Of a DNA stretch of 64,000 bases, positions 16,369 through 47,506 are shown in pieces. Made by a program: the position numbers and the translations under genes. Below the pieces are notes generated by a model that saw only the letters and a program-made list of their open reading frames with translations, had not been told where the DNA came from and ran no database searches. Origin of the DNA: a virus; IMG/VR virus record IMGVR_UViG_3300042373_001362, positions 32,001 through 96,000 of that record; one strand, 5' to 3'. Numbering within the stretch: position 1 is the first letter of the stretch; the number at the start of each line of letters is the position of its first letter.

Positions 16369-16530
16369 TGACCACCGTCCTTTCCTTTCCGACAGCAGGT
16401 TTGTAGGTACCTGGTATCAAGAATACACGCATGAATAATAAACGAACAATAAATAATTGCCGAAATAATGCAAAGAAGAAAAACTTCTGATGCTATTATT
16501 GTTTCATACCCCCTCACTCAAGGAGAAAAT

Positions 16531-19801: not shown

Positions 19802-21118
19802 CTAGATAACGATAGCAATCCTTCTTCTTTGTTGCAACCCGAGTCCGGCCAAATGTGTAAAAGCCCCAACAGCAGAGTCCACTTGGTCGTCATGGTCGCA
19901 TGCTTCAGGGAAAGAAGAAAGTTCATCAAGCCATTGAGTCAGCCATGGACCCCTAACTACCCTTACGTTTCCATTTGCTACTGCTGCGGCAAATGGTCTA
20001 GCCCTAGTGACCTTGTCTCCGGTTGCCCTAACTCCAGAAAAGTTATAACCGGGAAGAACGTATCTGGCGTACTGGTCGACAAGCGCTTTACCGCTTGAGC
20101 CGGGCTCCATTTCCATAAGAATCGGGGTATCTAGACCGTCTTCGTATGCTGTTTGAGATATTAATTGCTCGACTTTTTCCCCACGAACCCTGACTCTCTT
20201 GACGTCCATGATGTAGGCAATGCCTTGGTCAAACATCATCAAGGTTCCAACCGTGTAGTCAGGGTCAGGGTTGTTTGAACTTGGTTCGGTTGCTGCAAGG
20301 TCCCAAAACCTAACAACTCTTGCTGTGTTGGATATTGTTGGAACTTCAGACTGGTCAATAATAATTACCGACTCTCGTTCAAAGAGGCTTCCGAGAGTCG
20401 TGCTCCACCAGTCACCTTCTTCAAGTCGTCTACGCTCGATTGGGTCAAGGGCTTGCAGAGCCTGACGATACGAATCAGCGTCAATTCCGGGGTTGTCCGT
20501 AAGTTTTGAAGGTACGAATATTCTTCCTTCAGACAATCCCTCAACAATGAATCTCTGCCTTACCCAGTTGGGCGCAGGGTTAGATGCGCAACGCATTCTG
20601 AGGGGGACTTCCGATAGAGGGCCAGAGTTGGGTCGACGCAAGCGGGAGAACATGTAGCGATAGTCGGATTCCCGGATTTCGGTGACTTCGTCCATTCCGA
20701 TGAACTGGAATTCAGAACCTTTGTAGCGAAGATAGTCGGACTGGTTGTTTAGATATCCAAACGAGATTCTTGCCCCCGAAGGGAAGGTAGCCACGAAGCT
20801 GTTGTTGTTCCAGTGGACATCGTCATAGTTGGACATCCACGACTTAAAGCGGTCCATGAGCGCTCCAGGGAGCGACAAGTCTGCGAATGTTCTACGAAAA
20901 AGAATTGCAGAATAGTTGGGAATATCTACAAACTGAAGGGCGGACATTAGAAGCGCAGAAGACTTACCACCGCCAGCAGCACCCCCAAAAAGGGCCTCAA
21001 TGCCGTTAGTTCTTAAAAACACCTTTTGAGGCAAAGACGGCTCTTCTGGGCAGTAATCGGACATCTTTGGTTGGAGATACTCAAGAACTTGTTCCCAGTT
21101 CGTAGGTTGTTCTGACAT
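19802..21118 (-). CDS. terL: terminase large subunit
   Basis: GGAAGGGKS Walker A, MDEVTE Walker B, SNP, FWDLAAT and HDDQVDS nuclease motifs. Confidence 0.93.
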   Translation of the reverse strand: MSEQPTNWEQVLEYLQPKMSDYCPEEPSLPQKVFLRTNGIEALFGGAAGGGKSSALLMSALQFVDIPNYSAILFRRTFADLSLPGALMDRFKSWMSNYDDVHWNNNSFVATFPSGARISFGYLNNQSDYLRYKGSEFQFIGMDEVTEIRESDYRYMFSRLRRPNSGPLSEVPLRMRCASNPAPNWVRQRFIVEGLSEGRIFVPSKLTDNPGIDADSYRQALQALDPIERRRLEEGDWWSTTLGSLFERESVIIIDQSEVPTISNTARVVRFWDLAATEPSSNNPDPDYTVGTLMMFDQGIAYIMDVKRVRVRGEKVEQLISQTAYEDGLDTPILMEMEPGSSGKALVDQYARYVLPGYNFSGVRATGDKVTRARPFAAAVANGNVRVVRGPWLTQWLDELSSFPEACDHDDQVDSAVGAFTHLAGLGLQQRRRIAIVI

Positions 21119-32500: not shown

Positions 32501-35374
32501 CCTGTTGAGTTTTTCAATAGTGATGCAATCGCCAGTAACCCCAAGTGGGACGCTCGTGGTGGCTCATTCAGAAACCCAACTGTGGATGCTGAGTTCACTG
32601 CAACACCAAAGAAGGTTGCTAGAGCTGAACAGCTGGAGCCAGAAAGATTTGTTTCTCAGGCAAGAGCCGGAGAAAGGGTTGCACGCGCTGACAAAGATTT
32701 CATGGATGAATGGACCAACGGAAGTCATGGAATTGGTGCAGCGCAGCTTATGCAAATGCTTGGATTGGAAAGAGATTCAGAAGGCGACCGCATAAGCAGC
32801 CAAGACGTAAGAAAGCTTCTTGATGAAATAAACAAGATTAAAGAAGAAGCTGGAAGCGGACTTGTTCCTGCTGCAAAGAGGGAAGACGGAAAATTTAAAG
32901 AATCACTTGAGCTGGACACAAAGAAGTCTCCAATCAATGATGAAATAATGCACGCCCTCATTGTTTCTGGAAGATTCAAGAACATGAAAGAAGCGGTTGC
33001 TTCTCTTGGTGACCCAAGACTTGATTCTCTTGCTGCAGAATATGACTCCCGCATGCTTGTAGATGCAGCATTTATAAGAATCAAAGACCATTTAAACAAG
33101 GTTGGAGCAGCAGACCAAAAGAAGATTCTTTCTAAGGTAATCACTGCCACCCTTGGTCGCAAGACAACACTTGAATCTCGCGTACAGGAAGGCAGAGCAT
33201 CAATCAAGGGTGTAATGAATTCAGACGCAATGATTGGCGATGAAAAGCTTTCCGAAGTAATTGGCATGGTCAACGAGGTTCTTGATGCAAGGGGTCTTGA
33301 GACAATCGACAAGGATGCATTGTTCCCAAGGGACGAGGCAGGCGGATTTGTGAACAACTTGAGTGCTTCGGCTCCAGGCGCAACGAGGCTTGCTTCTGGT
33401 CAGAGGTTTGTAGCCAGAACCGCATCAAGCAGAAGAGCTGATGCCGGAATGGATGCTGCAGCAAGAAGAGCAACAGATAGGCCAACGTTCTCAAGCGGTG
33501 CAAAGCCAGCATTTAGGGACCCAGACGGAAAACTGAACGCCACAAACATGAGAGATGCTGCATCCGAAGCAACAATTCCAGAAGGAACAATGATAAGAAA
33601 AACTCCTGGCCAAAATATAGAAGACTTTGAAAAAGCAGTTAAGACGAGGGCCGAAATAGCAGAAACCCTAAACATAGATACTTCAGCAATAAATGGCTTT
33701 ACTGTCTACGACGTTATAGACGAGCTTAAAAAGGCAGGAATACCTGAAGATACCGCAGAAGACCTTGTCGATAAGCTTGTAGAACTAGATTTCTATATTG
33801 ATGCAATCGAGGAGAGATTCTCTGAAGCCAGAGAAATCATGGATGAAGCTATTGAAGAAGCTGAAGATGCTATGGACAAGATTGCGAAGCTAAGAAAAGA
33901 GCGTGCCGACATTATTAATAGGTACGGCGAAGAAGATGGACAGCCACTGCTTGAGGTTGTTGATGAAAAAATTAGCAGAGCGACAAAAAAGCTTGACGAT
34001 GCCTACCAAAGAGGTATCGGCAATGAGGATGCAAGAATGGGAACTCTCTATTCTCAGGTTGACGAAATTCTGAGCAATAATCGTGGATGGAGAGAGTATT
34101 CGCCATCCCCATGGGGAGATAGTACAAATCAGAACCTTGCTGCTCTTGAATTAGCAATTGCAAAAGCTGGCGGAGTAAAGAAAGCCGTACCAGTTACGGG
34201 AATAGATTTCGGAGTTCCAGAAGGCACAAGGCTTTCTTCAGGAAAAGCAGAAGAGTATTACCAAAACCTCACAAGCCACTTGATAAACATGATTGAAAAA
34301 TCACAAAAAGAAGGCGGTAAGTGGGAAGCACCATGGCATAAGGCTGGAAACCTTCCAAGAAATGCTTCTACAAAGAATATGTATTCGGGTGGAAACATCT
34401 TTGCTCTTATGCTTGCAGCCGAAGAAAAGGGCTTCACAACCTCTCACTGGGGTGGATTCCAGCAGTGGAAGAAGCTTGGAGGAAGCGTAAAGAAGGGTGA
34501 AAAGGCAACCATCATCCTCATGCCAAAGCAGATGTTTGGTGAGGAAATCGACCCAGACACAGGGCAGAAGGTTAGAAAGTCAAAGGGCGTATATTTTACG
34601 ACCGCACATGTTTTCAACCTTGACCAAGTTGAGGGAATTGACCGCGATGAGTTCTTGAAGCTGCCGACAGATGCTCTGACACCAGAGCAGAGAGTCACAA
34701 AGCTTGAAGACGCAATCAAGGAAGTTGGTGCAACAATCAAGACCGGAGATGGAAGTAGGGCCTACTACTCTCCGCGTGAAGACCATGTTGTGATGCCTCC
34801 ATTCGAACTGTTCAAGTCCCCAGAGGGATACTACGGAACACTCGCCCATGAGCTTGTTCACTGGACAGGGCATTCGTCAAGACTTGACAGAAAGAACATG
34901 AACCAGTTTGGTTCTCCTGACTATGCAAGAGAAGAGCTTATTGCTGAATTTGGCTCAGCTTTCCTGTTGGCAATGTTTGGTCTTTCTGCAGAACCAAGAG
35001 AAGACCATGCCCATTACTTGGCAAACTGGTTGCAGGTTCTTCGCGATGAGCCAAATGCTCTACAGGAAGCAGCAACGAAAGCTCAAGAAGCATCAAAAAT
35101 GCTTATCGACAAGATGAAGGCAGTTCTGGAAGAGATGGGCGAAACCGCATCTACTGCTGAGTCGACGGTAGAAGAAAAGAATGCAAATATTTTTACAGAC
35201 CCGCTTTACGGAATAAAGAATGGACTTGTTGAGTGGAGCAAAAACATTGAGAACGCTCCATATTTCATCAAATCCTTGACAGACCCTGATGAGAAATACG
35301 GAAATGTAAATAGAAGATGGGAAAGAATTGCGGAAGCAGCGCTATTCCTGAACGGAATAAACAACAAAATCTAG
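23537..35374 (+). CDS. giant polyprotein 1: prohead protease + RFSSG-delimited modules (WYL, SF1 helicase, ArdC)
   Basis: AAGGAG RBS before ATG 23537; continuous ORF; domain motifs listed separately. Confidence 0.9.
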   Translation: MSSSNKKSDIQYKAAPQGMVNLDEAQGIVECFVAGIGNKDSVGDVCAPGAFGKSLTRRKPRVVWGHNWNDPIGKVIDMYEVPPNDPRLPAKMKAAGIGGLYARVQFNLMSEKGREAFANVAFFGEEQEWSIGYKTINAKFDPQMQANILYEVELYEVSPVLHGANQLTGTISVKSEEQPSGVSVINAPSIDGLNVNELSSILDALKAISSSVSEDEKCGPGMMPQGMPGMPSGGPGMPSGPKPMHTHTPGAAPREVVKPQIPSMPENPMTVALRRELATRTGSNVIVRSASDSVVVFDRVLADGTSSTYRLPFHYAGGEFMFGKPEKVQSQANYVQDSPLSEIMVEALLSGPTAGAEKSLISFDDQEWGEGFGQSIPSQQVDASTLNSVIANLQKIIEQKSEYVVQVAPEHAFEVKQAIDPILDFYKVDATINEDGIVVKSLNEDFLNALDIATKGVLRSLGNLAGRAIDRPNIGRNRRDRTPNLASRGPGIGSRGAVVRLRDGSMWDPKNAPDRNRNGIVGEGLFDSSGRSLAQPDPTPEGPDSIRGAKTPKSPQTPKRQAAAAAKRNATVKRTSGQPQKARQRLSSGGIDQEVDDTPMLEEKFKKEVSGFLSEIGTNRNEIENILDLWENNDADHDKYMEEHGAGSKNFAENVAYAASAMYEDYISDAGDRQADRRAEGGRFSSGEWTKIPGVGYEMDAPDIEGAYEIQEGLDGKFYVVRFSDGNRNGGQDMTEYEHDKPFSTLAAAKKWAEKDYAQAADEYMPDEEMPDGDASERLNSLVAPELPSLDGMDESEADEALQNFSDEMFSFVNETENIAREVLGDDEYNKRFGGAVPLIEEISKRHDGSIEQRDIALENAFDQAERFNNSVNGSLGGGRFSSGQIDFDKIGESGLREMRHVERNPLRFDTQADKDARAAYERVVANFRANNGFFREVPMYAGDKKWHSEDWFRGREMAENVATLRFGDPIDQMPFFDKPGKPSKREFFERTTAVDYKSWYMTKIPAMTQELDRVLASDAYSDEYKEAFLEGMRTFFYVNRPNLQYAPKDTQAQYEEWLQRSGLGWKGRYSTSGPKFEDLDDTGRFSSGAKDKKTINSYDNSEDLKSAMFSALWTNGSRDEINNMTAEELAEILSVNPEWVEPLLEDTKKYTIEAMDDYDKYLSSLPEPTDEEINQEYQEWLSRQAGADYAQGMTVRDKFQDMTDEEAADYAAWLDEETWRDRDDRFSSGGGKTPEERLEEYNRRSAEKNAVLEKMTPEELEEYAREWNESHVEDVRLSSGSTNRPKSTKTGEEFIGRSYGLHDFFVYDEEDDFENIDKAIVDSLLKNERITLDDLLLEVRGIKDPDLSGEALVRRPDYMGANARRVAEAVANNTSVNPSLANQKAGREDILHFRYNGKQRSIYPETFSTSKKGVGYFVGWDETADNGNGAYRSFNVDKIEGLISSAIPPHVDRAARYTDYSWNITDFSDEDNQKILEQMRRTKEFRVLDDAQDLIDDEVSAGGTRVAGSTLDIAEKEAQAAFQDARNRQIDKMVADGKIKPLSRDSRFSSGMVNDGLPDGYWDTADDMADSYGDREDYTDARFSSGGMPSTKEQADLIAFARSKPGTFTDSVVSQFDRNRRLSEKQWDAIRRMMRGASGGKAAPKADKPTARFSGKRRQIVDIADIEKYDYPELPAKIKPTPEQDRAIDAMMTGADVKIGALAATGKTTTVINFANRLKAKEPDARVVYLVFNRNAKDDVEKRGMPGNVSVSTMDGIAYRAMDAINPEMTKKSFDKKEGHIKPINSFKDRAKYLGTKGMVSQGEELTDVDVYRIVAKAIDAYSISDDKEIGPQHFTGPYNGSYRVTDTSLLPELLKYANKMWEDMNLPRVNGATRKDQKGMLPVNNTHLTKMWALTNPDISEIAEVNVAMVDEAQDMNPVFAGILRNSNLQKIYIGDTNQAINAWRGADGTTLANVEATYDMPITDSFRFGKNVANMGNRFLSLLNTKERMTGRKTDKSGNPVDGRIGQVDNPTMILTRSNGGAIAATMEVFADGGIVYGSQNFKRDLENFLNNIEWMQNAQKGKPFYTDVYGKKVFSAPEFSQDLDGITNIADFNKAIEKGDDNRLNMLSKLMNEYSLEDLRESLNNIITDKNKLPKNRDEYVHIQTAHTSKGLESPRVKIWSDFRKPKKLPNGEWEYPNEQEMRLSYVAVTRAEEELDLGSLSWILDHTTEEDGMPNTFSSGRSKARGNRGDGKGRQKPWSAEDRQRFADRDILRSQTRPGKRRPGPSANEFSSGAEFDFTPEELNRWQKASEHASAYGDWENLPENRKNGYLRKFNGDENLAREQFNVERDLADFAADAQFDKTDSRFSSGGRFATPLDAPEGWEMPEIGDDGEIKNGPLKGYYVRGFGDDYVRGRKYVSYRGADYSSTDEHKNNLVDWGDYEAGYTLDRNIGSDEDIRSISDSSEQEEMAQYGDEGLYYGNSSRGRYDPQNDYETPVTDDSHSPENGADHIGKAVSVTDENGNKFYGVVVRGWEPEYEEDLDVDEDGWATPSMNIQDGGMVVLATHDADGKKLDKPVVVEASFGLENEYALVSNVERGGDDYEGPKVNVSKGRVSEETLDEAKKLYEELDPYRNGKAEEFRRQGALIDRAWRMPGGEKERREKAAEEAYRRSPEGIQEQREKLEASISAIEDKIRSAESSRESLMERLNDVSESGDNVLASKMEEILRDREGAVRLLQERLEEAKAELDAFNGEGNRLSSGRFAPDGQSGSRLQRRLSSGDVFGPPPGQSARYDRKKQVEATMGAFHSDPGKAVVSSDTEGLLGKIPSGKNSHILNAEAAKRIIADPDTEYSADTGWPVDAGRLLDFIEIENPLGGRPSTLRDKDDAQLIARVLGIPVSDAQDMLDGKPVYIASSTAADMFDNLSRSREYTASVGGLNDVARVWGFDGAPKWVRHSDIATPEFDLDENDRVNWSQVKWDGLSRADFDAAVRRGNNPPEPVYTSPVEFFNSDAIASNPKWDARGGSFRNPTVDAEFTATPKKVARAEQLEPERFVSQARAGERVARADKDFMDEWTNGSHGIGAAQLMQMLGLERDSEGDRISSQDVRKLLDEINKIKEEAGSGLVPAAKREDGKFKESLELDTKKSPINDEIMHALIVSGRFKNMKEAVASLGDPRLDSLAAEYDSRMLVDAAFIRIKDHLNKVGAADQKKILSKVITATLGRKTTLESRVQEGRASIKGVMNSDAMIGDEKLSEVIGMVNEVLDARGLETIDKDALFPRDEAGGFVNNLSASAPGATRLASGQRFVARTASSRRADAGMDAAARRATDRPTFSSGAKPAFRDPDGKLNATNMRDAASEATIPEGTMIRKTPGQNIEDFEKAVKTRAEIAETLNIDTSAINGFTVYDVIDELKKAGIPEDTAEDLVDKLVELDFYIDAIEERFSEAREIMDEAIEEAEDAMDKIAKLRKERADIINRYGEEDGQPLLEVVDEKISRATKKLDDAYQRGIGNEDARMGTLYSQVDEILSNNRGWREYSPSPWGDSTNQNLAALELAIAKAGGVKKAVPVTGIDFGVPEGTRLSSGKAEEYYQNLTSHLINMIEKSQKEGGKWEAPWHKAGNLPRNASTKNMYSGGNIFALMLAAEEKGFTTSHWGGFQQWKKLGGSVKKGEKATIILMPKQMFGEEIDPDTGQKVRKSKGVYFTTAHVFNLDQVEGIDRDEFLKLPTDALTPEQRVTKLEDAIKEVGATIKTGDGSRAYYSPREDHVVMPPFELFKSPEGYYGTLAHELVHWTGHSSRLDRKNMNQFGSPDYAREELIAEFGSAFLLAMFGLSAEPREDHAHYLANWLQVLRDEPNALQEAATKAQEASKMLIDKMKAVLEEMGETASTAESTVEEKNANIFTDPLYGIKNGLVEWSKNIENAPYFIKSLTDPDEKYGNVNRRWERIAEAALFLNGINNKI
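23615..24061 (+). other. HK97-type prohead protease domain (S78)
   Basis: DSVGDVCAPGAF, WGHN..PIGK, GLYARVQF, WSIGY, LYEVSPVLHGAN. Confidence 0.9.
27701..27862 (+). other. WYL-like domain
   Basis: HFRYNGKQRSIYP...YFVGWD...YRSFNVDKI. Confidence 0.7.
28577..30145 (+). other. UvrD-like SF1 helicase domain
   Basis: TPEQ, ALAATGKTT, VDEAQD, IGDTNQAINAWRGA, SFRFG, TAHTSKGLE, YVAVTRA. Confidence 0.9.
34244..35120 (+). other. ardC: ArdC-like domain pair (ssDNA-binding + zincin metallopeptidase)
   Basis: APW..PRN..YSGGN..FQQWKKLGGSVKKGEK..VFNLDQ; AYYSP..HELVHWTGH..RLDR..YAREELIAE. Confidence 0.88.
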
Positions 35375-35465: not shown

Positions 35466-37016
35466 ATGAACGATGAAATGAACATGAGCCTCAGCGTCAC
35501 AGGAGATGGCGAAGTTCTGAAGTGCGCAAAAATGGGCGCTGACGTCTCTGGCTGCGGGTACACGCCTGGTTCAAAGCTTTGTGCCAAATGTGGTGCGATG
35601 CCAACTCAGGTAAAAATCGTTCCCGTTGACGAACCAGAAGACGAGATGGAAGACGAGATGGAAGACGACGACCGTGCAATGCCTGCTCCAAGAATGGGCA
35701 ACAAGCCTGCGCCAGTCGCCATGGAAGACGCTGGCATGGAGCCAGAAGAGCTTGAAGTCGAAGACGAAGAAGACGAAGAGTCCATGGATGAAGAAAAAAC
35801 AGCTTATTACAAGAAGTATGGCTATGACCGCTACGTCAAGAAGTATGGCAAGAAGCCATGGATGATGGACGGAGAAGGTCCTGACGAAGAAGAGGATATG
35901 AGTGACGAAGAAAAGGCTCTCCTCTGGGCTCTCAACAAGAAGCGCAAGGCTCGTGGTCTGACGGCAACCCAAAACGGCATGGACGTAAAGGGTATGGGCG
36001 AAGAGTATTACGAAGAAGAAGACGAAGAAGACGAAGAAGAAATGTCTGAGGACATGCCAGAAGACGACGAAGTCGAAAAAATGGCAATGCTCGAAAGAAT
36101 GCGCAAGAAGCGCATTAAGTCACTGGGCATCACACCAGAGGCTGTAGGTCCTCGCGGCTATCTTTGCGCCATCGAAAGAAAGGCATACCCAGGTGGAGCG
36201 TCTGTTTGTGACGACTGCCCAGGCGGATGTGTTTCAGAAAAGGGACTTCCTGGCTTGCTTCATGTCGAAGGTCTTGCTGAGCAGATGTTTAAGGGAACAG
36301 TTCTTGACTCCGGATACTCAGCAAAAGCAGACATGTACGTCATTGATATCCAAACAAAAACTGGCGCAGTAAACGAAGTCTTCGTTGACGGAACAACTGC
36401 AGAGGTCATGGGTTTCCACAGGCTTGACAACTCCGTATTTGAGCAGAAGTCGGCACAAGACAGCATGCAGATGATTCAGTTCTATGAAGCAGCAGACATT
36501 GCTGTTAAGTCAATTGACGGCCACGTAATTGGTGTTGAGCCAGATTCTTTTGAAGGAATCGATGCATACGCAGTAGAAATTGATGGCTTCGACGGTAAGT
36601 CATATGACGTCTTTGTTTCTCTTGATGGCGAAGTTCTGGGCTACGATAAGTACGAGATGGACGAAGCAGAAGAGATTGAAGCAGAAGCTGCAGAAATTGC
36701 TCTGAAGCGTGCGTTCACTGAAGACCAGCGCACATCGATGGCTAAGGAAGGAACAGCAATGCCAGATGGTTCGTTCCCAATCAAGAACGAATCAGACTTG
36801 CGTAATGCAATCCAGGCCTACGGTCGTGCAAAGGACAAAGAAGCCGCAAAGCGCCACATCATGAAGCGTGCGAAAGAAATGGGCAAAGAGAACCTGATTC
36901 CTTCAAACTGGGTAATGGGTGGCGGAACCGAAAAGAAGAGTGACGTTGTTGACGCAAGTTTGATGGCTTCTCTTATCGAATTCGAGCTTCTTCAAGCCGA
37001 AACAGAAATCAACTAG
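35466..37016 (+). CDS. acidic head-region protein with Cys clusters, two PepSY-like repeats and a C-terminal PDGSFPI domain
   Basis: CxxC motifs, Glu/Asp tracts, EAADIAVKSIDG..YAVEI..YDVFVSLDGEVLG, AMPDGSFPIKNESDLRNAIQAYGRA. Confidence 0.7.
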   Translation: MNDEMNMSLSVTGDGEVLKCAKMGADVSGCGYTPGSKLCAKCGAMPTQVKIVPVDEPEDEMEDEMEDDDRAMPAPRMGNKPAPVAMEDAGMEPEELEVEDEEDEESMDEEKTAYYKKYGYDRYVKKYGKKPWMMDGEGPDEEEDMSDEEKALLWALNKKRKARGLTATQNGMDVKGMGEEYYEEEDEEDEEEMSEDMPEDDEVEKMAMLERMRKKRIKSLGITPEAVGPRGYLCAIERKAYPGGASVCDDCPGGCVSEKGLPGLLHVEGLAEQMFKGTVLDSGYSAKADMYVIDIQTKTGAVNEVFVDGTTAEVMGFHRLDNSVFEQKSAQDSMQMIQFYEAADIAVKSIDGHVIGVEPDSFEGIDAYAVEIDGFDGKSYDVFVSLDGEVLGYDKYEMDEAEEIEAEAAEIALKRAFTEDQRTSMAKEGTAMPDGSFPIKNESDLRNAIQAYGRAKDKEAAKRHIMKRAKEMGKENLIPSNWVMGGGTEKKSDVVDASLMASLIEFELLQAETEIN

Positions 37017-37033: not shown

Positions 37034-40000
37034 ATGACGGGTACGTTTAAAACGAAAACAAGATTTTATACCTCTTCGCAATTTGTGACCCCTATTTCAG
37101 GGCGCAAGCATTTCGTTGACTCCGCTATTGATTTCAGGCGAGGCCTTATTGAGAACTCATCAATGGCCGTTCTTAATGCCGATATCGCTGTTAAGGCTGC
37201 AATGGGAGCAGGGCTCTCTTCGTCTTCTGCTTCTGTCGGTCAAAAAGCACAGGGCGGCACATCTCCCGATTCTGACGGCAAAAAGCGCGTCAACAAAGGT
37301 GGCGTTCCTGGAATGGAAGAAGACGCCAACGGCTATAGGTACATGCCTGAAGCAACATGGGGTCCAGATAAGGTCCTAAATCTTTTTCCATCTCAAGAGA
37401 ATAGACAGTCAACAGACAGAACTCCAAACTTTGGATTCATCGACAAGGGTCCAGTCATCACTCCAGAACAATACGTTCAAAAAATGGAGAACGAACCACG
37501 AATCAGGATGTCCAAATACAAAATCAACTCTAGAACTGGTGAGCCTATAGAGGACACTGAAGTTGAATTTGACCGAATGAGATTCGGAAAAACTTTTGAT
37601 ATCAATCCAGATGTATCTGATGAAATATCTGAATCAGTTTCAGAAGAAATACAGGAAAAAAGTTTAGGAAGAAGTCTTAAAGAAAGAATGCCCGGCGGAA
37701 GCCTTATCGGAAGAGCTGCTGCTCGATTTGGCGTAATTATGGATGAACTTGGGAAGATGAGATGTCCTCCAGGAACTCCAGCCGCAAACCAATTTACCGA
37801 CATGACGGGTTCAAACTGTTTTGGCACATCGCCAGGAACGTTGATATCCGAAGCAATAAACCTTGCTCAAAACCTTGTTCCAGAAGACGATTCAAGACGT
37901 TCCTCTCGCCTCACAAGAGGCATTGTGAATCTTATGTTCGACTTAGAAAACGGTTTGTTTGGCAACAACGTCTGGTATCACGCAGACGGAACAAGAATGA
38001 AGCACGGCGAGTGGCGCAAGTTTCGCGAAGCTGGTGGTGTAGCAAAAAATGAACGCTGGATGGTCAATGGTGTTGAGAGAGTACTTGCCGAATTGGACTC
38101 TCAAGATGCACGAATGGAAGACCTTTATAGCAAGCTTGGCATAGACGTAAGCGATGTCAGAAAAGCAACAAACGAAGATGTATTTGAAGCTTTTCAAAAA
38201 CTCAAAGATTCAGGTGTAATTAGAGCTCAGCTTAGGGGTAGGCCATCGGCGGCTCAAGTTGAGGCGATGATGACTGCTCGCTTGCAAAACATGGACGCCC
38301 ACTGGATAGCAAGAAGCGCTGAAGAAAGAAAAATACTACTTGATATCGAGGTTAAGCGGTATAGGGAGCTAGAGAGAGCCCACATGGAGGCTTTTCTAGA
38401 TGAGGTTATTAAAAACCCAGAGCACATGAAAACTATCGGTGACGTCACTTTTAACCCAGCCGGAAGAGACCGCGCATCGTTTGGGATATCTAGGATAGGC
38501 CCAGATGGCAAGCCAGTTGGCTCTATAAATATAGACATACCGATGTCGCTCAAGTTTCAGGACTCAATGTTGCCAAATCTTTCTCCAGATGAGAGGCTAC
38601 GCATTTGGGCCGAAGGTGGACAGTCTGAAGTTTTGAGAGCAATGGCTGTTAAAGATTTCCTTGTTAATTCTAACTCTCATGCTGGACAGATGATAGCGAT
38701 GGTTGATGGTGGTCGTGGCCTTGGTCGACACGACATGAAACACGAAATAGCCCACTCAATCCAAGCCGTTGCGATATTCAACCATATGAAGAGAGAGCTA
38801 GACGCACGTGGCTCGCTCGTTATAGACAATGGAGAAAACAAAGCGCCCACCGTAATAACGGACGTAAGTCAACTTAACTCTGACATGCTTATGGCGTTGA
38901 TGGCTAGAGAAAACTTTATGGGCATTGACCTCAACTCACTAAAAGACCTCAGGTCTAGAGGTGACGTTGTTGCTTTTCTCGCTGGAAAATATATTGACGA
39001 AGTGCAGGCTCAATACGGAGGCATGAGAAGAGCGGCAGAAATAGGTGCAGAATTATGGTCACTCCGCAGTTCTGGTTTAATTTATGGCGATGACGTTGAT
39101 GCGGCTCTTGAATATATGGATGATGTTGCTTCTGGGGCGATTACAATTGATAGGACAGTTTCGGACGAAATTTTAAACAGAAGAGTTTATGAAGAATACC
39201 TCGATGGCTCCCGAAGGATACGCGAAGCCAGGGAGGAATCCGAGAGGCTCGCTGAAGAGGCTGAAGACGGGGAGTTTTTTGACGCGGAAGGAAGGGCGTC
39301 TGCCGAAAGGCTTTCTGCTGCCAGAGAAGCATACGCAGCAGAAAAACGCGCAGAAGTAAAAGAAGTAAAAGAAGCAGCAAAAACAATGTCTGAAGAAGAC
39401 ATGATTGACTTCCTCGCCGATGCGACAGAATCTTCTGATGTTCTGACAGAAATGCTTGATTCAGTAGAAGAAGCAGGTGAGGAACCTGACTGGATGTCTG
39501 TCATGGACAGAGACACTCTAGATGCAATGTCAAAAGCGGTTGTTGATGAATGGGTAAAAAGGTTTACCGTAAGAAGAAGCCCTGAGGCTATGGAAAAGCT
39601 TCAGAAAATGATTGACGACAAGCGTGAATCAAAAGGAACACTTTCTCCAGAAAAGGTTGAAGAGCGAAGATTTAGACAGTTCATGGAAGGTGCTGCTGAG
39701 CGGGCACAAGAAATGGGCCTAGAAGACCTTGTTCAGGCATACTCTGACTGGGAAGAGCTCGCTACTGGAGAAGGCGTTGATGGCGTCGACAGGGCACGCA
39801 GAAAAGAAATGCGTGATATGTACAGGGACGAGTACATAAAGAGAAGAACAGAAGGTCCTGACTCTGTTTCCAAAGAAGACGCACGCAAAGAATTCAACTC
39901 AAAGTTTAAGACACTTCGCAAGCCAAAGACAACGGCTGCTCGCGAAAGAGAAAAAAGAGCAAATCCGAAGAAGTTTAAAACTCATAACGGTAAAGATGGA

Positions 40001-43000
40001 GCACGAACTTTTGCTACCGCAGAAAGAGAAAGACTTCTCGAAGGTGCAACAACAGAAGAAAAAATTGCTCTTGTCGAAATGGGAAGCGGTGAAACTGACG
40101 TAATCAACATGATGAATGGCAGTTCCGAAGGAATGGCATCTGCTAGAGCTATCCAGAGAAGAAACACCAGACTTAAGAAAAATGGAGTTCTTCCTGATGA
40201 ATTAAATCATCATGAGGCGTCAATAGAAGAACAGGTAGAAAACTTCTACATACCACTTCTTGAATTGATGGACAAGTCCTCCCTGTCTCAAACTGTAGAA
40301 ATGCACATCGACAGCAATGATGATGCTATGAAGTACGTGGAAGACCTTCTTAATGGCGGAAGTCCAGAATTCACTGTCGGTATTGGAACCGGAACACTGG
40401 TTACAAGCAATACAGACTTTTCAGACGGCAAAAAGATAGTTATCCGCGTCCCAGAGGGAAGTAGGGCTGTTTTCCCGGACTGGTCTTTTTATTCTGACTC
40501 CGACAACGGTGAGCAGAAAATGATGATTCCACCGTCAAAGTTTCACCTTGTTGAAATTCGGGATGACGGAACAGTCGTTCTTGAGGTTGGAGAACAAAAA
40601 GGAACCGAAGAAGTTCTCAAAGATGCGATAGAGGAGATATCCCCTAGCGCTGGTGACAGTGACTTTGCATACAGAGAAGGCCTCAAGAAGAAGGTTGGCA
40701 GGGTAGTCGACAAGAGAATTGCGGAGCGTCGCAGACAGGGTATGTTTGACCCAGAAAAGCGTTCTCCAGTTGAAGAAGAAAGATTCTCTGCTAGTGCAGA
40801 CAACGCTGCTGCTGCTGCCGGTTTTGAACCAGACCTTCCACCAAGGCCAACCACTCCACCGCCAACAGGCGATTCACCCAACAAGCAGAGAGGAGTGAAA
40901 AGAAGACAGGCTTCAGCTGCGATTGACCGCGTAGTAAATCCAAACAATAGAACTGAAGACTCATGGCAGAAGGAAAGAAGAGCTAGACAAGAGCTGGATG
41001 CAATACACGCATACATAACCGGTGAAGGCGCATATCAAAATAGAACCAATCGAGTCGGTCGTAAAATAGCTCAAATGATGGAAGAAGCCTTCGGCACATC
41101 AAACATAAACGAACTAACCGAAGACCAAAAGTACGACTTAATTGATTTAATTTCTCAAAGATTAGATGCCAAGCTAAGAATAGACAACAACGGCTCTTAT
41201 GACGACAGAAGAAGCTTATCGCAATTCAAAAGCAGAATTCAAGACCACATTGACATTTCAAAAATGCTTGATTCAAATGACTTTAGCGACCCATATGGCA
41301 GCGATGGCTATGACATCGATTGGTCATCAATAGACACAACGCCTGATAGGCCTGAAAGATTCTCTTCCGGAGCCAAATGGGGGCAGATGCCTTCTAGCAA
41401 CGAACAAATAGATGGTCTTCTTGATGCATCAAACAATGATGGATTTAATGAGATTTATGGTTCACCACAAACTCGTGAAGAGCGAATTGCTCAGATGGTT
41501 GAAATGCAATCCGAAGTTCTCACTTCATTGAGAGAAATGATTGACAATGTTCCCGGCTCTGGAGACGAATTAGGACTTGAAGCCTCAAGCATTGACCCAG
41601 TAATCATGGACCTCATCAAGAACTCATCCGACGAAGAGATATATCAGATTATTTCAAAGGCCGCTATGGACTTGCATCAAAGTTTTGACTCACGACCACG
41701 TGTACGAATGAGACAAGATGAGCTTGATAACTTCCTGAAGACTGGAAGATACGGAAGAGAGTCTTCTTTTGATACCGATGCCAATAGATTTTCTTCAGGC
41801 AGGATAAGCAAAGGCATCAGGGCTAGAGCCAAAGATAAAGCAATAGAAATGATTGCTGAAAGAATTGGCAAAGATGAGGACTCACGTGAAATAGCAGAGA
41901 TGGTCCTAGACACTGTTTCTGCTCTTAAGTACGGCCCAGAAGCCGCCCTGACGCGCTTGGCGATAGACCTCGGAAGACGAGGAAGCCGAGATATTGCTGA
42001 AAGAACATTAGAAGAACTTGTTAGTAGAGGGAAACTCACAGACGAGCAAGCGAAATCTATATTGTCAAAAATGGACAGGTTTGCCCCAGACGGTCTTCCA
42101 GAACCAATCAAGAGAGGCGTCGGTTCGGCTGTTCGTGCCGCAGCAGACGCAATCGATACTCCAGAGAACAGAGAAAGACTGGACAGGGCTCGTGAAGCAG
42201 CAGGAGAAGCTGCAGGCAGAGCCAGGGAAGCTGTCGGTGAAGGTGCAAGAAACGTAGCCGAACGAGGTCGTGAGAGACTTAGAAGACTTAGGGAAAGAGA
42301 CGACAGAGGCGAAATTCCATCTTCTCCAGAAGATGTTCCATTTGGCGACTTTGACCCAGCGGATACAATTTTTTCAAGCGGCAGAAGACTCGACAGAAGA
42401 GTTGCTAGCTCGGAAGCTGGCCGTGAAAGAATCATGGATGGGGCAAAGAAGACCAGAACAAGATTCAGCAGCGGAGAGACGCCAGAACTTAAAGAGCCAA
42501 AGAAGCCAAGCAGGCCACGAGAGCCAGATAATGGCCCCATGACTGGAAAGTTCATCGACATCTTCAAGGGTGTTAAGTCATATAAAGAGATGCTCGATAG
42601 ATACAACGAGCAAGAAGTTATCTTCTTTGACTACGAGACAACTGGCTTTGACCCCAAAGTTGAAAGACCCGTTCAAATTGGTGCAGTAAAGATGAAGGGC
42701 GGAAAAGTTGTTGAAAGGTTCAATATCTTCGTAAACCCAGAAAAAGAACTTAGCGATTGGTCAAAAGCAAACCTCGTAGATGCTGACGGTAATCCACTAA
42801 CAAACGATTGGCTAAATAATCAGCCATCAATAGCAGAAGCACACCAACAACTTATTGATTTCTTTGGGCCTGATGCACTTCTTGGTGGACAGTTCACCCC
42901 GTTTGACCTTGGGTTCCTTGAAGAGTCACTCAAGAATGCCGGAATAGAATGGACTCCTGCTGGCGTTATTGACAGCAAGGCGCTTGCAGACGAGCTACTT

Positions 43001-46000
43001 CCAAAGTGGACACCAGAAACCGGCGATGGACCATTTGCTTTGAACGACGACGGCAGTAAATATGCTACTAACAGCCTTGGGCCCCTATCTGAGTACCTTG
43101 GCGTGGACCTCAAGGCATGGCATACGGCAGATGCTGACTCTGAGGCATCTGCAATGATTGTCCAGAAGATTCTTGAGCGTGCGGCCGAAAGAGACGACAC
43201 TCCAAAGCATCTGCTAAAAGTTGAAAACATGCCTGCAATCGTCAACGAGCGTAGAGCAAAGCACAAGTTGGCAATGGATAAGTACTTTGCTGACATGAAG
43301 CAGTACAAGGCAGACATGGAAGCCTATAACGCTTCTAAATCTGACTCAGGAGGCGGAACAAGATTCTCTTCCGGCGGGAAAGCCGACCCCATGGTCATCA
43401 AGACAAATGGTCGATACGGCGACACCAGCGGAAAGAGCGATTTTAGCTCAGATGAGCTAAAGACAATAGACGAAATAACCGAGCGTCTATCCAACTCTGA
43501 TTTGAATCTGGCGTGGTTTTCGTTAGAGAACGAAGACGGAACAGCCACATCTTCGCCATTGATTAACTTTAACGGCAGGCCAATAGCTGTTGTTCGTATT
43601 GGAGAACAGAACATACCGTTTTATAGAAGTACCGGAAGTGGCGGCAAAGACCCAAGCAGGTTTGTTCCAAACAAATGGTATCCATTCTGGGGGTATAACG
43701 CGTCTGGTCAGTGGTTTATAAAAAACGAAGAAATGGAAAACTATTACGGGATACCAGAGCTGGAAGAAATATCTAAACAACTGGACACCCTTACGGATGG
43801 TCTTCCAAAGTTAAAGGCATCAACAGAGTGGCGTAGCGTCGCAAACATAGAGACCGGCCAAATGGATGATGATTTTAGAGGTTTAATAAATGGAACTGCA
43901 TTTAGAAATGCTGACTCGCTTTATAACAGACGTGACATAACAAATCACATTACTGTATCTAAGAAAAAGACGAGAGACGAAATAAAGTTAATGAAGAGAG
44001 ATGCCTTAAAGGCCTCAAGAGATGGCAATACTCCTCCAGGGGTTGATAGGTTCTCTTCTGGAGAAACATATAGAGAACTGGTTAGAACTGAAGGAAGGCC
44101 ATCAGAAAAGCAAAAAGAAGCAATTTCTGATGTTAAGGACATTCTAAGAAATAACGAGTTTGGCATTGCTGACGAGTTTGACGATGAATACGAAGTAGTA
44201 GACAGTCCAAGAAGGGCTGAACTGAAGGCGAAAGTTGCTGAAAAGATTTCAGAAGCTTTCTCTCACGACATAGAAGCAAGAGAAGATGTCGTTGTTACCG
44301 CTAAGAATGGCGAAAAAATAAACCTAGGAAAAGATTTCAAGATTGAAATAAGCGAAATATCTGTAGATGTTGACACTTATGACGAAGAAACTTTAGAAGC
44401 AATCAAAGAGCAACAGTTTTACGATACTCCTACTGGCTCAATGAGCGACTCCCCAAGCACTTTAATATCGATGAAGATATCAATAAAGCCAAAAGACGAG
44501 GAAGCAGCAAAGCGCCTTGAGCAGGCAGGTATCCCGGAGCTTCTATTGCCAGACTATTTTGACGGAACCCCAGGGGCCGACGATGTAAGGGTTGGATTCT
44601 CATCAAGAAACTTAGTAATAAATGGCAACGAAATGCATGCAACGCATGAGTCACTATTCCTCAGGGATGAAGCTCAAGGGAAAGGCATAGGAAGTCTATT
44701 CAACGCTAAGAATGAAGGAGTCTATGAAGAGCTTGGCGTTAGAAGAATCCTCACCAACGGTCAATCCTCTGAACTTGGAGAATCTGAAGGTGGAACACAT
44801 TGGCCAAGAAATGGTTTTACGTGGGCCGGAGAACAGAGCAAACAGGACTTTATTAAGGTTATAGACCGAGCCCTGAAGAGAAGAAAGAGCAAATTCTCTG
44901 AAGAAGAATACGCAAGAATAAGTTCTTTATATAGAAAGAACCCCTCAACTAGGAAGTTCGAAACAGACGCATCAGCAGAAGAGCTTGTCGATTTTGCTTA
45001 TGCAGATGAACTGTTTAAAGAACAGGATGCAAGCTTCATGTTTAAGCGCGACATTGAGCTCGTATCTGCCGGTAGTCCGAGATTCTCTTCAGGTGGAACA
45101 AGGTTCTCTTCTGGGGCGTCTGGAGCAGCAAGAGCTGGAATAAACAGAGATATATATGAAAGAGAAGGGGGCAGACCCTCGGACAAGCTGGAGCCATCAT
45201 CTTTGTTAAGAAAATCATCAGACGGAAAAGACTCTTCTGCTCTAGAAATAAATGGCAAAACATATGACATTAAGTCACTCAAAAACGAAGACGGAAACTT
45301 TTCTGTATTTATAGAAAATGAAGACGGTAAAAAAATTGCTGAGATTGTTTTAAACCAGGAGCCAACATCTTATGCATCTATAGTTTCAATATCATCGGAA
45401 GAAGATGCACAAAAAGCTGGAGCGCTAGAAGGAATTTTAGACTCTTTGTTAATAAATAATCCTGACGCAACGTTTAGGAAAACAGAAAAAACAGCAGAAT
45501 GGTTCAACTACGTAACCAATGGCATGGCTGACTATGGGCTTCAGGGAAGCAGACAGGTTGGTTTCTCCGGAAAGTTCAGCGATGGAGAAAGAGCTACACC
45601 CGATGGCGACTATACGTTAAGTTCGTTTTTAAGATTTAAGCCGAAAAGAAATTCATCTAAAACGCTAAAATCCGATAAAAATTCTTTTTCAGAGTATTCA
45701 TATAAGTGGAACGGGGAAATATTTGATATCGGAGGAGAGTCATTAGTATTTGGCGCACCTGAAGATGCGGAATTTGAAGATAGTTCTATAAAAAAGATAA
45801 ATCTGAATCCATTTGAAATACTGGGTCTTGAGCCAACTTCAGAAGAAGGCAGAGATGCTGCCATGAAATGGATGTCAGCAATACACGGCGCATCAATATC
45901 CATAATATCTGACGGTCAAGAATTTAAACCTAGCACCTATGTTAGTGCTCTTCTTTACGCCTCTTCAAAGGGGGATAAGAAAGCAGCAGAAGAATTAGAC

Positions 46001-47506
46001 GCATTGGCAAAACGTTCAAGTGATTGGCTTGCAAAGCTAAAAGAAAAAGAACAAAAGATTGAAGAAACTGGAAATGCTTTGCCGCTCAATTCTAGGCTTG
46101 TTCACCAAACGTCATACAAGCCAACAATAGATAAAGACGGATATCTAGTCCTTCGACCACTAGAGGACTTTCCACAAAAATCGAACGATGGCTCTGACGT
46201 AACTGTTAACAGAACAACGCTGCATTTAGCAATCAATCACCTTGCAGAAGGTCATATGTTTAGGCAGGAAACACAAGGTAAGTCTTACATTGTAATGATG
46301 CCTCTTGACTCTTTTATGGACCAAAACCCAGATAGCCTCGAAAATCTTTCAATAGTTGACACTGCAGCAACACCCCCACCAGGAGATGGCTTGCGCATGG
46401 CTCCAGGAACATTCAAAGTTATAGAGGTCGATGAGGGCGGGAATGGTCGAAGGATGGTTGAAGATGCTCTCAGAGAAGATGGCGTAGGCGTTCTAGTCGG
46501 TGGTGACAGGTCTTCCGGAACTCCAGGAGCAGATAAAGCAGCCGAAGCTAGGGCGCGGATGCTTGGAGTGTCTAATAACGTTGCGTCTGACCTGCCGTTA
46601 ACAGTGTTTGAAACTATTAACAGGACAAGCATATATGAGCAGTCTCGCTATGCCGATGTTCCTGCAACTACCGAAATTATGCAAACTGCTAGCAAAAATA
46701 CACTCATGAGAATGGCCAACAGAAGAGAAAACGCATGGACAGCATTTGATAAAGAAGTAGTAGCAACAGACTTTTTGTCTAGCGGTGAAGTAAAAGCCCC
46801 AGCAGAACCAAGAACACGGAAGCCAAAGCGAGTAAAGAAGTATAAGGGCTACGACCTTAACGAGCCAGACAATCCGGCTCCTAAGCCGGGAGAATTCCCT
46901 GATGATGTTGTTGAGGCTGCAACAAAACATAGGGCAGAGATTGAAAAGGTAGAAGCGGAAATAACAAAGCTTCTCATTGACTTGGCCGAAAAGAATAAAG
47001 CCCGTATGGAAGGTCTTGATTTTAGGCTTAAAGCTCTGAAGTCACTAATGCGCAAGATAGCTGCAGAAAAAGACAGCGAGCATGGTGGAGACGCAGAAAA
47101 AGCAGCGAAGTCCATGTCTGATGTTGTTAGGTACACGATGTCCTACGGCCCAGAAGATTACGTTGCTGGCGTAAAAGACGTTGTAGCAGAAATGCAGAAA
47201 CTTGGGTATGACCTTAGAATTAAGAACTACTGGAAGGGCGGCGACCCATACCAGGGAATCAACGTTGCCGTAACACACCCCGATGGAACAAAGTTTGAAC
47301 TGCAATTCCATACTCCACAATCTGTGGCTGAGAAAGAAAAAATTCACGTAATGTATGAGGAGTACAGAACATCAAAAGACCCAGGTCAGAGATGGGAGTT
47401 GTACCAGCGGATGGTTGAAATAGCTAACCAAATAGGTGTACCTATTCCACCAGAAGAACTGCTAACTATCGGCCAAGTGAAAGAACAGCCATTCCAGGCG
47501 GAGTAA
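37034..47506 (+). CDS. giant polyprotein 2: zincin, ART-like, DEDDh exonuclease, GNAT, RelA/SpoT-type C-terminal domain
   Basis: Continuous 3490-aa ORF with AAGGA RBS; nine xFSSG/xLSSG delimiters. Confidence 0.9.
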   Translation: MTGTFKTKTRFYTSSQFVTPISGRKHFVDSAIDFRRGLIENSSMAVLNADIAVKAAMGAGLSSSSASVGQKAQGGTSPDSDGKKRVNKGGVPGMEEDANGYRYMPEATWGPDKVLNLFPSQENRQSTDRTPNFGFIDKGPVITPEQYVQKMENEPRIRMSKYKINSRTGEPIEDTEVEFDRMRFGKTFDINPDVSDEISESVSEEIQEKSLGRSLKERMPGGSLIGRAAARFGVIMDELGKMRCPPGTPAANQFTDMTGSNCFGTSPGTLISEAINLAQNLVPEDDSRRSSRLTRGIVNLMFDLENGLFGNNVWYHADGTRMKHGEWRKFREAGGVAKNERWMVNGVERVLAELDSQDARMEDLYSKLGIDVSDVRKATNEDVFEAFQKLKDSGVIRAQLRGRPSAAQVEAMMTARLQNMDAHWIARSAEERKILLDIEVKRYRELERAHMEAFLDEVIKNPEHMKTIGDVTFNPAGRDRASFGISRIGPDGKPVGSINIDIPMSLKFQDSMLPNLSPDERLRIWAEGGQSEVLRAMAVKDFLVNSNSHAGQMIAMVDGGRGLGRHDMKHEIAHSIQAVAIFNHMKRELDARGSLVIDNGENKAPTVITDVSQLNSDMLMALMARENFMGIDLNSLKDLRSRGDVVAFLAGKYIDEVQAQYGGMRRAAEIGAELWSLRSSGLIYGDDVDAALEYMDDVASGAITIDRTVSDEILNRRVYEEYLDGSRRIREAREESERLAEEAEDGEFFDAEGRASAERLSAAREAYAAEKRAEVKEVKEAAKTMSEEDMIDFLADATESSDVLTEMLDSVEEAGEEPDWMSVMDRDTLDAMSKAVVDEWVKRFTVRRSPEAMEKLQKMIDDKRESKGTLSPEKVEERRFRQFMEGAAERAQEMGLEDLVQAYSDWEELATGEGVDGVDRARRKEMRDMYRDEYIKRRTEGPDSVSKEDARKEFNSKFKTLRKPKTTAAREREKRANPKKFKTHNGKDGARTFATAERERLLEGATTEEKIALVEMGSGETDVINMMNGSSEGMASARAIQRRNTRLKKNGVLPDELNHHEASIEEQVENFYIPLLELMDKSSLSQTVEMHIDSNDDAMKYVEDLLNGGSPEFTVGIGTGTLVTSNTDFSDGKKIVIRVPEGSRAVFPDWSFYSDSDNGEQKMMIPPSKFHLVEIRDDGTVVLEVGEQKGTEEVLKDAIEEISPSAGDSDFAYREGLKKKVGRVVDKRIAERRRQGMFDPEKRSPVEEERFSASADNAAAAAGFEPDLPPRPTTPPPTGDSPNKQRGVKRRQASAAIDRVVNPNNRTEDSWQKERRARQELDAIHAYITGEGAYQNRTNRVGRKIAQMMEEAFGTSNINELTEDQKYDLIDLISQRLDAKLRIDNNGSYDDRRSLSQFKSRIQDHIDISKMLDSNDFSDPYGSDGYDIDWSSIDTTPDRPERFSSGAKWGQMPSSNEQIDGLLDASNNDGFNEIYGSPQTREERIAQMVEMQSEVLTSLREMIDNVPGSGDELGLEASSIDPVIMDLIKNSSDEEIYQIISKAAMDLHQSFDSRPRVRMRQDELDNFLKTGRYGRESSFDTDANRFSSGRISKGIRARAKDKAIEMIAERIGKDEDSREIAEMVLDTVSALKYGPEAALTRLAIDLGRRGSRDIAERTLEELVSRGKLTDEQAKSILSKMDRFAPDGLPEPIKRGVGSAVRAAADAIDTPENRERLDRAREAAGEAAGRAREAVGEGARNVAERGRERLRRLRERDDRGEIPSSPEDVPFGDFDPADTIFSSGRRLDRRVASSEAGRERIMDGAKKTRTRFSSGETPELKEPKKPSRPREPDNGPMTGKFIDIFKGVKSYKEMLDRYNEQEVIFFDYETTGFDPKVERPVQIGAVKMKGGKVVERFNIFVNPEKELSDWSKANLVDADGNPLTNDWLNNQPSIAEAHQQLIDFFGPDALLGGQFTPFDLGFLEESLKNAGIEWTPAGVIDSKALADELLPKWTPETGDGPFALNDDGSKYATNSLGPLSEYLGVDLKAWHTADADSEASAMIVQKILERAAERDDTPKHLLKVENMPAIVNERRAKHKLAMDKYFADMKQYKADMEAYNASKSDSGGGTRFSSGGKADPMVIKTNGRYGDTSGKSDFSSDELKTIDEITERLSNSDLNLAWFSLENEDGTATSSPLINFNGRPIAVVRIGEQNIPFYRSTGSGGKDPSRFVPNKWYPFWGYNASGQWFIKNEEMENYYGIPELEEISKQLDTLTDGLPKLKASTEWRSVANIETGQMDDDFRGLINGTAFRNADSLYNRRDITNHITVSKKKTRDEIKLMKRDALKASRDGNTPPGVDRFSSGETYRELVRTEGRPSEKQKEAISDVKDILRNNEFGIADEFDDEYEVVDSPRRAELKAKVAEKISEAFSHDIEAREDVVVTAKNGEKINLGKDFKIEISEISVDVDTYDEETLEAIKEQQFYDTPTGSMSDSPSTLISMKISIKPKDEEAAKRLEQAGIPELLLPDYFDGTPGADDVRVGFSSRNLVINGNEMHATHESLFLRDEAQGKGIGSLFNAKNEGVYEELGVRRILTNGQSSELGESEGGTHWPRNGFTWAGEQSKQDFIKVIDRALKRRKSKFSEEEYARISSLYRKNPSTRKFETDASAEELVDFAYADELFKEQDASFMFKRDIELVSAGSPRFSSGGTRFSSGASGAARAGINRDIYEREGGRPSDKLEPSSLLRKSSDGKDSSALEINGKTYDIKSLKNEDGNFSVFIENEDGKKIAEIVLNQEPTSYASIVSISSEEDAQKAGALEGILDSLLINNPDATFRKTEKTAEWFNYVTNGMADYGLQGSRQVGFSGKFSDGERATPDGDYTLSSFLRFKPKRNSSKTLKSDKNSFSEYSYKWNGEIFDIGGESLVFGAPEDAEFEDSSIKKINLNPFEILGLEPTSEEGRDAAMKWMSAIHGASISIISDGQEFKPSTYVSALLYASSKGDKKAAEELDALAKRSSDWLAKLKEKEQKIEETGNALPLNSRLVHQTSYKPTIDKDGYLVLRPLEDFPQKSNDGSDVTVNRTTLHLAINHLAEGHMFRQETQGKSYIVMMPLDSFMDQNPDSLENLSIVDTAATPPPGDGLRMAPGTFKVIEVDEGGNGRRMVEDALREDGVGVLVGGDRSSGTPGADKAAEARARMLGVSNNVASDLPLTVFETINRTSIYEQSRYADVPATTEIMQTASKNTLMRMANRRENAWTAFDKEVVATDFLSSGEVKAPAEPRTRKPKRVKKYKGYDLNEPDNPAPKPGEFPDDVVEAATKHRAEIEKVEAEITKLLIDLAEKNKARMEGLDFRLKALKSLMRKIAAEKDSEHGGDAEKAAKSMSDVVRYTMSYGPEDYVAGVKDVVAEMQKLGYDLRIKNYWKGGDPYQGINVAVTHPDGTKFELQFHTPQSVAEKEKIHVMYEEYRTSKDPGQRWELYQRMVEIANQIGVPIPPEELLTIGQVKEQPFQAE
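38400..39130 (+). other. zincin-like metallopeptidase domain
   Basis: HEIAH at 38741-38755 and downstream AAEIGAEL. Confidence 0.55.
42617..43180 (+). other. DEDDh (DnaQ-like) 3'-5' exonuclease domain
   Basis: FFDYETTG, QIGAV, PFDLGFL, IDSK, WHTADAD. Confidence 0.88.
44630..44830 (+). other. GNAT acetyltransferase-like core
   Basis: LFLRDEAQGKGIG (acetyl-CoA motif A) ... GGTHWPRNGF. Confidence 0.7.
46880..47503 (+). other. RelA/SpoT-type nucleotidyltransferase (toxic alarmone synthetase-like)
   Basis: RLKALKSLMRKI, DVVRYT, KNYW, YQGIN, FELQFHTPQS. Confidence 0.85.

Follow-up and report, generated by a model that had tools for sequence, protein, structure and literature searches.

Capsid cargo that is freed by the head-maturation protease at a short consensus is represented by the internal proteins of T4 and the ejection proteins of phiKZ and SPN3US. 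Each of these cargo proteins has its own gene and one or a few sites, and they do not form serial cassette arrays with motif-precise exchange. In CdiA, the homology of orphan toxin modules extends from one VENN-coding sequence to the following one, and recombination at these sequences was proposed as the way in which modules are reloaded (Poole et al., 2011; PMC3150448). The work by Iyer, Burroughs, Anand, de Souza and Aravind (2017; PMC5512222) predicts the processing of polyvalent proteins and raises the possibility of recombinational variability. According to De Paepe et al. (2014; PMC3945230), Rad52-like phage recombinases acting with an exonuclease promote mosaicism where homologies are short and diverged. 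Here, we analysed a stretch of 64,000 nucleotides (nt), referred to as the window, that spans bases 32001–96000 of IMG/VR record IMGVR_UViG_3300042373_001362, a complete viral genome of 148,355 bp with terminal repeats. Two giant polyproteins in the window are divided into modules by a recurring peptide motif, (R/K)(F/L/M)SSG, which is doubled at positions 45080–45115. Judged from sequence comparison, this motif is the exact point at which whole modules are gained, lost or swapped in related phages.

The two giant proteins are encoded as follows:
23537–35374, forward strand: giant A, 3945 amino acids (aa) from its ATG (open reading frame, ORF, from 23483), with 15 [FL]SSG motifs.
37034–47506, forward strand: giant B, 3490 aa, with nine [FL]SSG motifs.
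Only four further [FL]SSG tetrapeptides were present in the other ∼36,000 codons, and the full motif with Arg or Lys was found beyond both giants as two copies in a 1703-aa ORF and one chance-like match.

IMG/VR supplied many relatives of giant A, ranging from 2200 to 4740 aa. A megablast search of both giants against 50,697 phage records returned no matches; a search of viral contigs for loci related to giant B and its 912-aa variable part found none, nor did a search of metagenome contigs for module X, the cassette that ends at the doubled motif. When the proteins were cut at the motif and clustered, the same modules recurred in other orders and beside other neighbours while conserving their lengths; the helicase module, for example, measured 638–681 aa in nine phages. 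The DnaQ-like cassette (window 42464–43363) was located in giant B in most phages and in giant A in L040, and was bounded by the motif in both. The L040 copy (L040:10022-24241, residues 3140–3422) was ∼40% identical to that of the window. A third giant type (P0005–P0009, P0013, P0016 and P0017; 2054–4670 aa) carried neither the protease N-terminus of giant A nor the N-terminal 1200 aa of giant B, and had motif-bounded cassettes in common with giant B in a different order.

The sequence-only reading of this DNA had proposed that cassettes are gained and lost at the motif, with the ends of insertions, deletions and replacements in related phages as the check. The obtained results showed that these ends coincide with the motif. 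Of the ends of BLASTP high-scoring segment pairs (HSPs), 27% lay no more than 6 aa from a motif, compared with 5.6% of random positions. The boundary test compared homologous modules with an unrelated neighbour across the motif under a strict definition (179 left and 70 right pairs, which are not independent). Ungapped identity was 0.2–0.6 inside the module and dropped to a background of 0.03–0.12 immediately past the motif on both sides, and none of the 249 boundary comparisons showed a tail of the neighbour carried along. As global alignment force-aligns non-homologous cassettes and is unreliable for indels inside replaced regions, only indels with well-aligned flanks were counted. Six of the seven clean large indels, seen between phages that were 79–94% identical, ran from motif to motif in register, with sizes of 107, 168, 112, 93, 51 and 236 aa.

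Three-way DNA alignments placed the change of the short allele, from a match with the left copy to a match with the right copy, inside the motif DNA, and the exact identity at these crossovers of the relatives was 8–24 nt. The direct repeats around the relatives' cassettes were exact over 8, 18, 24 and 29 nt and reached 43/45 nt, often exceeding what the peptide needs. Three alleles were seen at one slot, which was empty, carried a cassette of 168 aa or carried an unrelated one of 112 aa. In giant B, the motifs at residues 1443, 2111, 2340 and 3248 were where homology to L009_B, L010_B, P0004, P0010 and P0012 started or stopped; the junctions of P0026, P0004, P0010, P0012 and P0015 are seen at the protein level only, and the polarity of the events as insertions or deletions is unrooted.

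The motif copies also shared a DNA core. The 14-nt pattern MGRTTCTCTTCNGG had eight matches in the window, all on the forward strand and exactly where the sequence-only reading had listed its eight copies, with none in 100 dinucleotide shuffles and no further copies across the whole 148,355-bp genome. These copies, the last two of which form the tandem, and the cassette that they enclose are located as follows:
26174–26187, forward strand: core copy in giant A.
28178–28191, forward strand: core copy in giant A.
30587–30600, forward strand: core copy in giant A.
41357–41370, forward strand: core copy in giant B, exactly where homology to L009_B resumes.
43361–43374, forward strand: core copy in giant B, where homology to L009_B, L010_B and P0010 stops.
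44048–44061, forward strand: core copy in giant B, the 5′ boundary of cassette X.
44048–45079, forward strand: cassette X, a 344-aa module (giant B residues 2339–2682, including the 5′ motif).
45080–45094, forward strand: first RFSSG of the tandem (AGA TTC TCT TCA GGT), the 3′ boundary motif of module X.
45095–45100, forward strand: Gly-Thr spacer (GGA ACA), the two codons between the tandem motifs.
45101–45115, forward strand: second RFSSG of the tandem (AGG TTC TCT TCT GGG), the 5′ boundary of the next module (residues 2691–3248).
The motif-bearing DNA constitutes the largest direct-repeat family of the 24-kb region. To obtain a null expectation, the synonymous codons of the 24 motif copies were resampled 2000 times from the giants' own usage, which gave a mean of 1.13 core copies and a maximum of five, against the eight observed. 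In-register exact runs of at least 11 nt joined 28 pairs of copies, compared with 6.5 expected under the same resampling.

Codon usage was then compared across nine lineages. TCT encoded the first Ser of the motif in 97/171 copies (57%) and the second in 92/171 (54%), compared with 0.24 at all other Ser codons of the same genes and 0.33–0.38 in matched contexts (after Phe or Leu, in Ser-Ser, before Gly). Tested against the highest matched-context rate, the pooled binomial gave p values of 5e-9 (first Ser) and 2e-5 (second Ser), with orthologous copies that are not independent. In L023, TCT is a minor codon (0.13 background), yet it was used in 7/16 and 9/16 of the motif positions. The Ser codons of orthologous motifs were identical at 0.71, versus 0.58 for other conserved Ser, and within this phage taken by itself, the context-matched signal for TTC was modest (p 0.01). 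On this second check of the sequence-only reading, the similarity of the motif DNA exceeds ordinary codon bias, in both the number of core copies and the enrichment of TCT beyond matched contexts. The two motif copies of the 1703-aa ORF, a sample of only two, use other codons (CTA AGC AGT and TTT TCT AGC) and do not carry the core.

A phage tRNA-Ser was rejected as the cause of the TCT bias, since the genome encodes none. Six tRNA genes are present outside the window, for Gln(ctg), Ile(tat), Met, Arg(tct), Arg(cct) and Lys(ttt), at full-genome coordinates 16485–16580, 98626–98699, 99479–99555, 106663–106736, 106908–106980 and 107399–107472. In 15/19 copies the codon of the motif Arg is AGA or AGG, which the two phage tRNA-Arg read.

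At the protein level, all close relatives of giant A kept (R/K)(L/F/M)SSG, in 13–20 copies per protein; Leu was commoner than Phe among the relatives, and one clade had Lys in place of Arg (KLSSG). Distant relatives were without [FL]SSG and displayed G[LF]AS, GLRS or GFSS(T) at a similar density instead. In the distant set L047–L081 (for example L049:9980-16294, L066:4909-11391 and L047:9917-15355), each protein had 5–9 copies of the substitute motif. Across the four G[LF]AS/GLRS proteins, TCN always encoded the motif Ser (29/29), with a variable third base. Giant A begins with a Peptidase_S78 prohead protease domain (residues 46–189), followed by UvrD helicase, ArdC-N and MPTase-PolyVal domains, and giant B contains an RNase_T domain (DnaQ-like exonuclease). 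A short consensus that shifts from clade to clade, in proteins that start with a maturation protease, suggests a cleavage site, for which the S78 domain is the candidate protease. The first role of the motif is at the protein level, where it most likely designates the positions at which the maturation protease frees the modules.

A difference in motif number was observed between L010:8086-20694 and L012:4213-16821, which have the same length and otherwise the same motif positions. They differ at residues 2068–2084, where four base changes within ∼30 nt turn DFSSEES into DFSSGES, so that L012 has one motif more, 10 aa upstream of the following one; the change resembles a short conversion tract.

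The giants lie directly downstream of head genes:
19802–21118: large terminase.
21360–23438: portal.
Given this phage head-gene setting and the combination of disparate domains, giants A and B belong to the polyvalent proteins as Iyer et al. (2017) define them, and their packaging and delivery into the host together with the DNA is putative. Between the giants, a 516-aa ORF (35466–37016, forward strand) with GAAGA-rich acidic repeats had no Pfam or PHROG match. The 1703-aa ORF (1792–6903, reverse strand) had no family match, and its two full motif copies, at residues 38 and 743, read KKLSSGA and ARFSSGA, respectively. Otherwise 100%-identical cluster members differed by a 5-aa indel, PRPTT, at window 40841–40855 (giant B residues 1270–1274), a population-level length polymorphism in a Pro-rich stretch away from any motif.

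The tandem RFSSG-GT-RFSSG, read directly in the sequence at 45080–45115 as the sequence-only reading had it, corresponds to residues 2683–2695 of giant B, and its two 21-nt units (45080–45100 and 45101–45121) are identical at 14/21 positions. Cassette X, which precedes it, is absent in P0004 and present in P0010/11, P0012 and P0015 with differing upstream neighbours. Its homology begins at the first residue past SSG in three upstream contexts (giant B, P0010/11 and P0012). The first RFSSG of the tandem aligns with the lone motif that closes module X in P0010 and P0012. A single motif is present behind X in these two phages, and a spacer between two motifs was found in P0015 (35 aa), P0008 (34 aa) and P0013 (55 aa).

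Near-empty slots of this kind had been read as evidence of cassette gain and loss. Intervals of 7, 19, 31 and 35 aa were present as described, and the 33-aa interval appears only when a degenerate motif is counted. Apart from the 7-aa tandem, the small slots are:
42371–42475, forward strand: 31-aa slot in giant B, a conserved basic mini-peptide of the same length and ∼80% identity in L009_B, P0004, P0010, P0011 and P0015.
31763–31831, forward strand: 19-aa slot in giant A, a peptide conserved in both L009_A and L010_A, the latter with RFYSG as a degenerate first motif.
33389–33499, forward strand: 33-aa slot in giant A, from the degenerate RLASG (residue 3303) to TFSSG, also 33 aa in L009_A and L010_A.
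28181–28297, forward strand: 35-aa acidic slot.
Only the 35-aa and 7-aa slots of the five are specific to this lineage. The use of near-empty slots as evidence for gain and loss was not upheld, since three of the five are conserved peptides and a 16-aa slot in relatives came from an internal deletion. As footprints of precise excision, near-empty slots were likewise rejected.

The claim that the phage encodes a Rad52-like annealase and an exonuclease was confirmed by Pfam matches at 17847–19326:
18616–19326, reverse strand: Rad52-family annealing protein (Pfam Rad52_Rad22 PF04098, E 1.5e-12, 48 bits, cut-off 20.3).
17847–18665, reverse strand: PD-(D/E)XK exonuclease (PDDEXK_1, E 3.6e-34; exonuclease phrog_69).
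The annealase gene overlaps the end of the exonuclease gene, and its product also gave a weak Erf-like phrog match.

We consider that homology-guided exchange of cassettes at the motif DNA has about an even chance of being the explanation. The site at 45080–45115 would be a doubled copy of a family-wide inter-module motif in a polyvalent cargo polyprotein encoded in the head operon. The peptide would serve as the maturation-protease signal, and its coding DNA as the place where module-sized exchanges resolve. Because each cassette is flanked by the same in-frame, TCT-TCT-GG-biased sequence, crossovers would stay in frame, and a crossover between any two copies would give an in-frame polyprotein with an intact joint, whether the partners lie within one genome, in the two giants or in co-infecting relatives. 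Short-homology recombination at the motif would yield most of the whole-cassette gains, losses and replacements, often aided by extra identity in the flanking linkers, and selection for intact modules would act as a second filter. A mechanistic role is favoured on account of the in-register precision despite the tolerance of scars, the extended direct repeats and the family-wide synonymous bias; we infer that the DNA identity is a cause rather than a by-product, and that the annealase and exonuclease pair takes part.

Several observations weigh against this reading. The exact in-register identity between motif copies of this phage averaged 5.5 nt (typically 5–6, maximum 15), which falls below the minimal efficient pairing segment of 23–27 bp for Red-beta, a Rad52-like recombinase (PMC3945230), and the link between motif and annealase is for this reason only circumstantial. 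The left end of a 140-aa event lay 5–8 aa upstream of the motif. A 71-aa internal deletion with 2 nt of microhomology left the 16-aa slot of L028/L029, and when giant A was compared with P0026, a relative of 95.7% identity, the sole large difference was an internal deletion of 24+77 aa. The P0026 gap (window 25781–26152, approximately residues 767–890) lies in the acidic module 702–899, with its right end 3 aa before the RFSSG at 26174. These internal deletions demonstrate that imprecise events happen and are tolerated. At the tandem, the block common to giant B and P0010 ends ∼12 aa beyond the second motif, so that this junction is not motif-precise. An in-register event from motif to motif removes the slot, leaves one motif and cannot yield a tandem, and the tandem is therefore not a footprint of motif recombination. 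In relatives that are ∼75% identical, the 19-, 31- and 33-aa slots have kept both their length and their sequence. As to the codons, the lineages pooled in the test have a common ancestry, the synonymous conservation of the motif Gly codon was no higher than elsewhere (0.49 vs 0.50), the context-matched TCT excess within this phage alone was modest at the first Ser (p 0.008) and lacked significance at the second, and the bias could instead stem from a constraint on translation or on the mRNA at linkers. The same pattern could also be left by selection for intact modules and cut sites, as purged events are invisible. The earlier proposal of an in-frame microhomology is partly supported. It stands for the position of the breakpoints and the synonymous bias, and is weakened by the identity of at most 15 nt and by selection, which could leave the same pattern.

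The alternative built on this last point is that selection is the only filter: breakpoints would arise anywhere by illegitimate recombination, only products with whole folded modules and an intact motif would persist, which would make the surviving junctions look motif-precise, and the TCT bias would be unrelated, with a cause such as context-dependent codon usage, translational accuracy or pausing at linkers, or the shared descent of linkers. We regard it as possible, with rather less than an even chance. Protein-level selection clearly acts on the motif, the TCT excess is partly contextual (0.33–0.38 vs 0.24), the microhomology is shorter than the reported pairing minimum, and the closest comparisons contain motif-independent internal deletions, all of which agree with it. 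Since scars appear tolerated, as seen in tandem motifs, slots of 6–17 aa and truncated modules, imprecise junctions should be common if selection acted alone, yet the clean indels were in register with one exception and the boundary comparisons were free of neighbour tails. Direct repeats of 18–43 nt flanking the cassettes of close relatives beyond the need of the peptide, the enrichment of TCT even where it is a minor codon, and the missing core in both motif copies outside the giants (only two copies) also argue against selection alone. That the common DNA core reflects nothing more than ordinary codon bias or chance is very improbable; AGA, TTC/CTT and TCT are indeed common codons in this genome, and this explanation was rejected by the shuffles, by the synonymous resampling, whose 2000 runs never exceeded five copies, and by the context-matched binomials.

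For the tandem itself, the better reading is a variable spacer slot that shrank by imprecise deletion, or a local 21-nt duplication. It might instead have no part in cassette turnover and be a double cut site with a function of its own, or a mere slippage duplication of 21 nt, which we find rather unlikely. Similar short doubles occur independently in P0016 (6 aa), L024 (14 aa), P0010 (15 aa) and L012 (10 aa). The conservation of several short slots suggests tolerance of, or a use for, short excised peptides or double cuts. The match between the 21-nt units also agrees with duplication; most of it is the motif itself, and the length of the tandem position varies in relatives (0, 7, 34, 35 and 55 aa), which fits a decaying spacer better. 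A more far-reaching proposal, put forward tentatively and with the doubt falling on the stronger side, is a selected dual code. The peptide would be the cut signal and the TCT-TCT-GG-biased DNA a universal in-frame crossover site, so that giants A and B and the third type would form an expressed 'cassette rack' of anti-defence cargo for co-infecting phages, with exchange driven by the Rad52-type annealase that the phage itself encodes.

Should the joint be both a cut signal and a crossover site, this phage family would have a built-in means to re-assort two dozen injected enzymes and always keep the reading frame. Among these enzymes are modules for helicase, ArdC anti-restriction, exonuclease and acetyltransferase-like functions. 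This would account for the fast diversification of polyvalent proteins, and a simple rule, to cut at the motif, would parse the giants into functional units. It would also offer a natural design for swapping phage-delivered cargo. The in-register indels, the three-allele slot and the single-residue homology steps make the idea directly testable.

Compared with the described systems, this phage resembles that of De Paepe et al. (2014) in its pair of a Rad52-family annealase and an exonuclease, and differs in the homology on offer, which is 8–15 nt at the motif and 18–29 nt only at some of the relatives' junctions, against 23–27 bp. Giants A and B resemble polyvalent proteins in being giant, multi-domain products of the virion gene region that include ArdC-N and MPTase-PolyVal. 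A term search of Iyer et al. (2017; PMC5512222) finds no 'linker', recurrent inter-domain peptide motif or junction-level breakpoints, and compared with polyvalent proteins generally, the protease here is an N-terminal S78 prohead protease. The likeness is closest to the VENN-delimited CdiA-CT cassettes and the Rhs core motif, in which a short conserved peptide marks off variable modules. As in CdiA, the homology of relatives begins and ends precisely at the motif in giants A and B. Unlike VENN, the phage motif is probably a protease site and its DNA is less conserved; as a candidate recombination substrate, it offers a TCT-TCT-GG bias with exact runs of at most 15 nt here and 8–29 nt at the junctions of relatives. 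CdiA presents one variable C-terminal slot with silent orphan arrays and immunity genes, whereas the phage presents ∼24 expressed serial slots in two polyproteins, and all the phage cassettes seen lie inside expressed ORFs.

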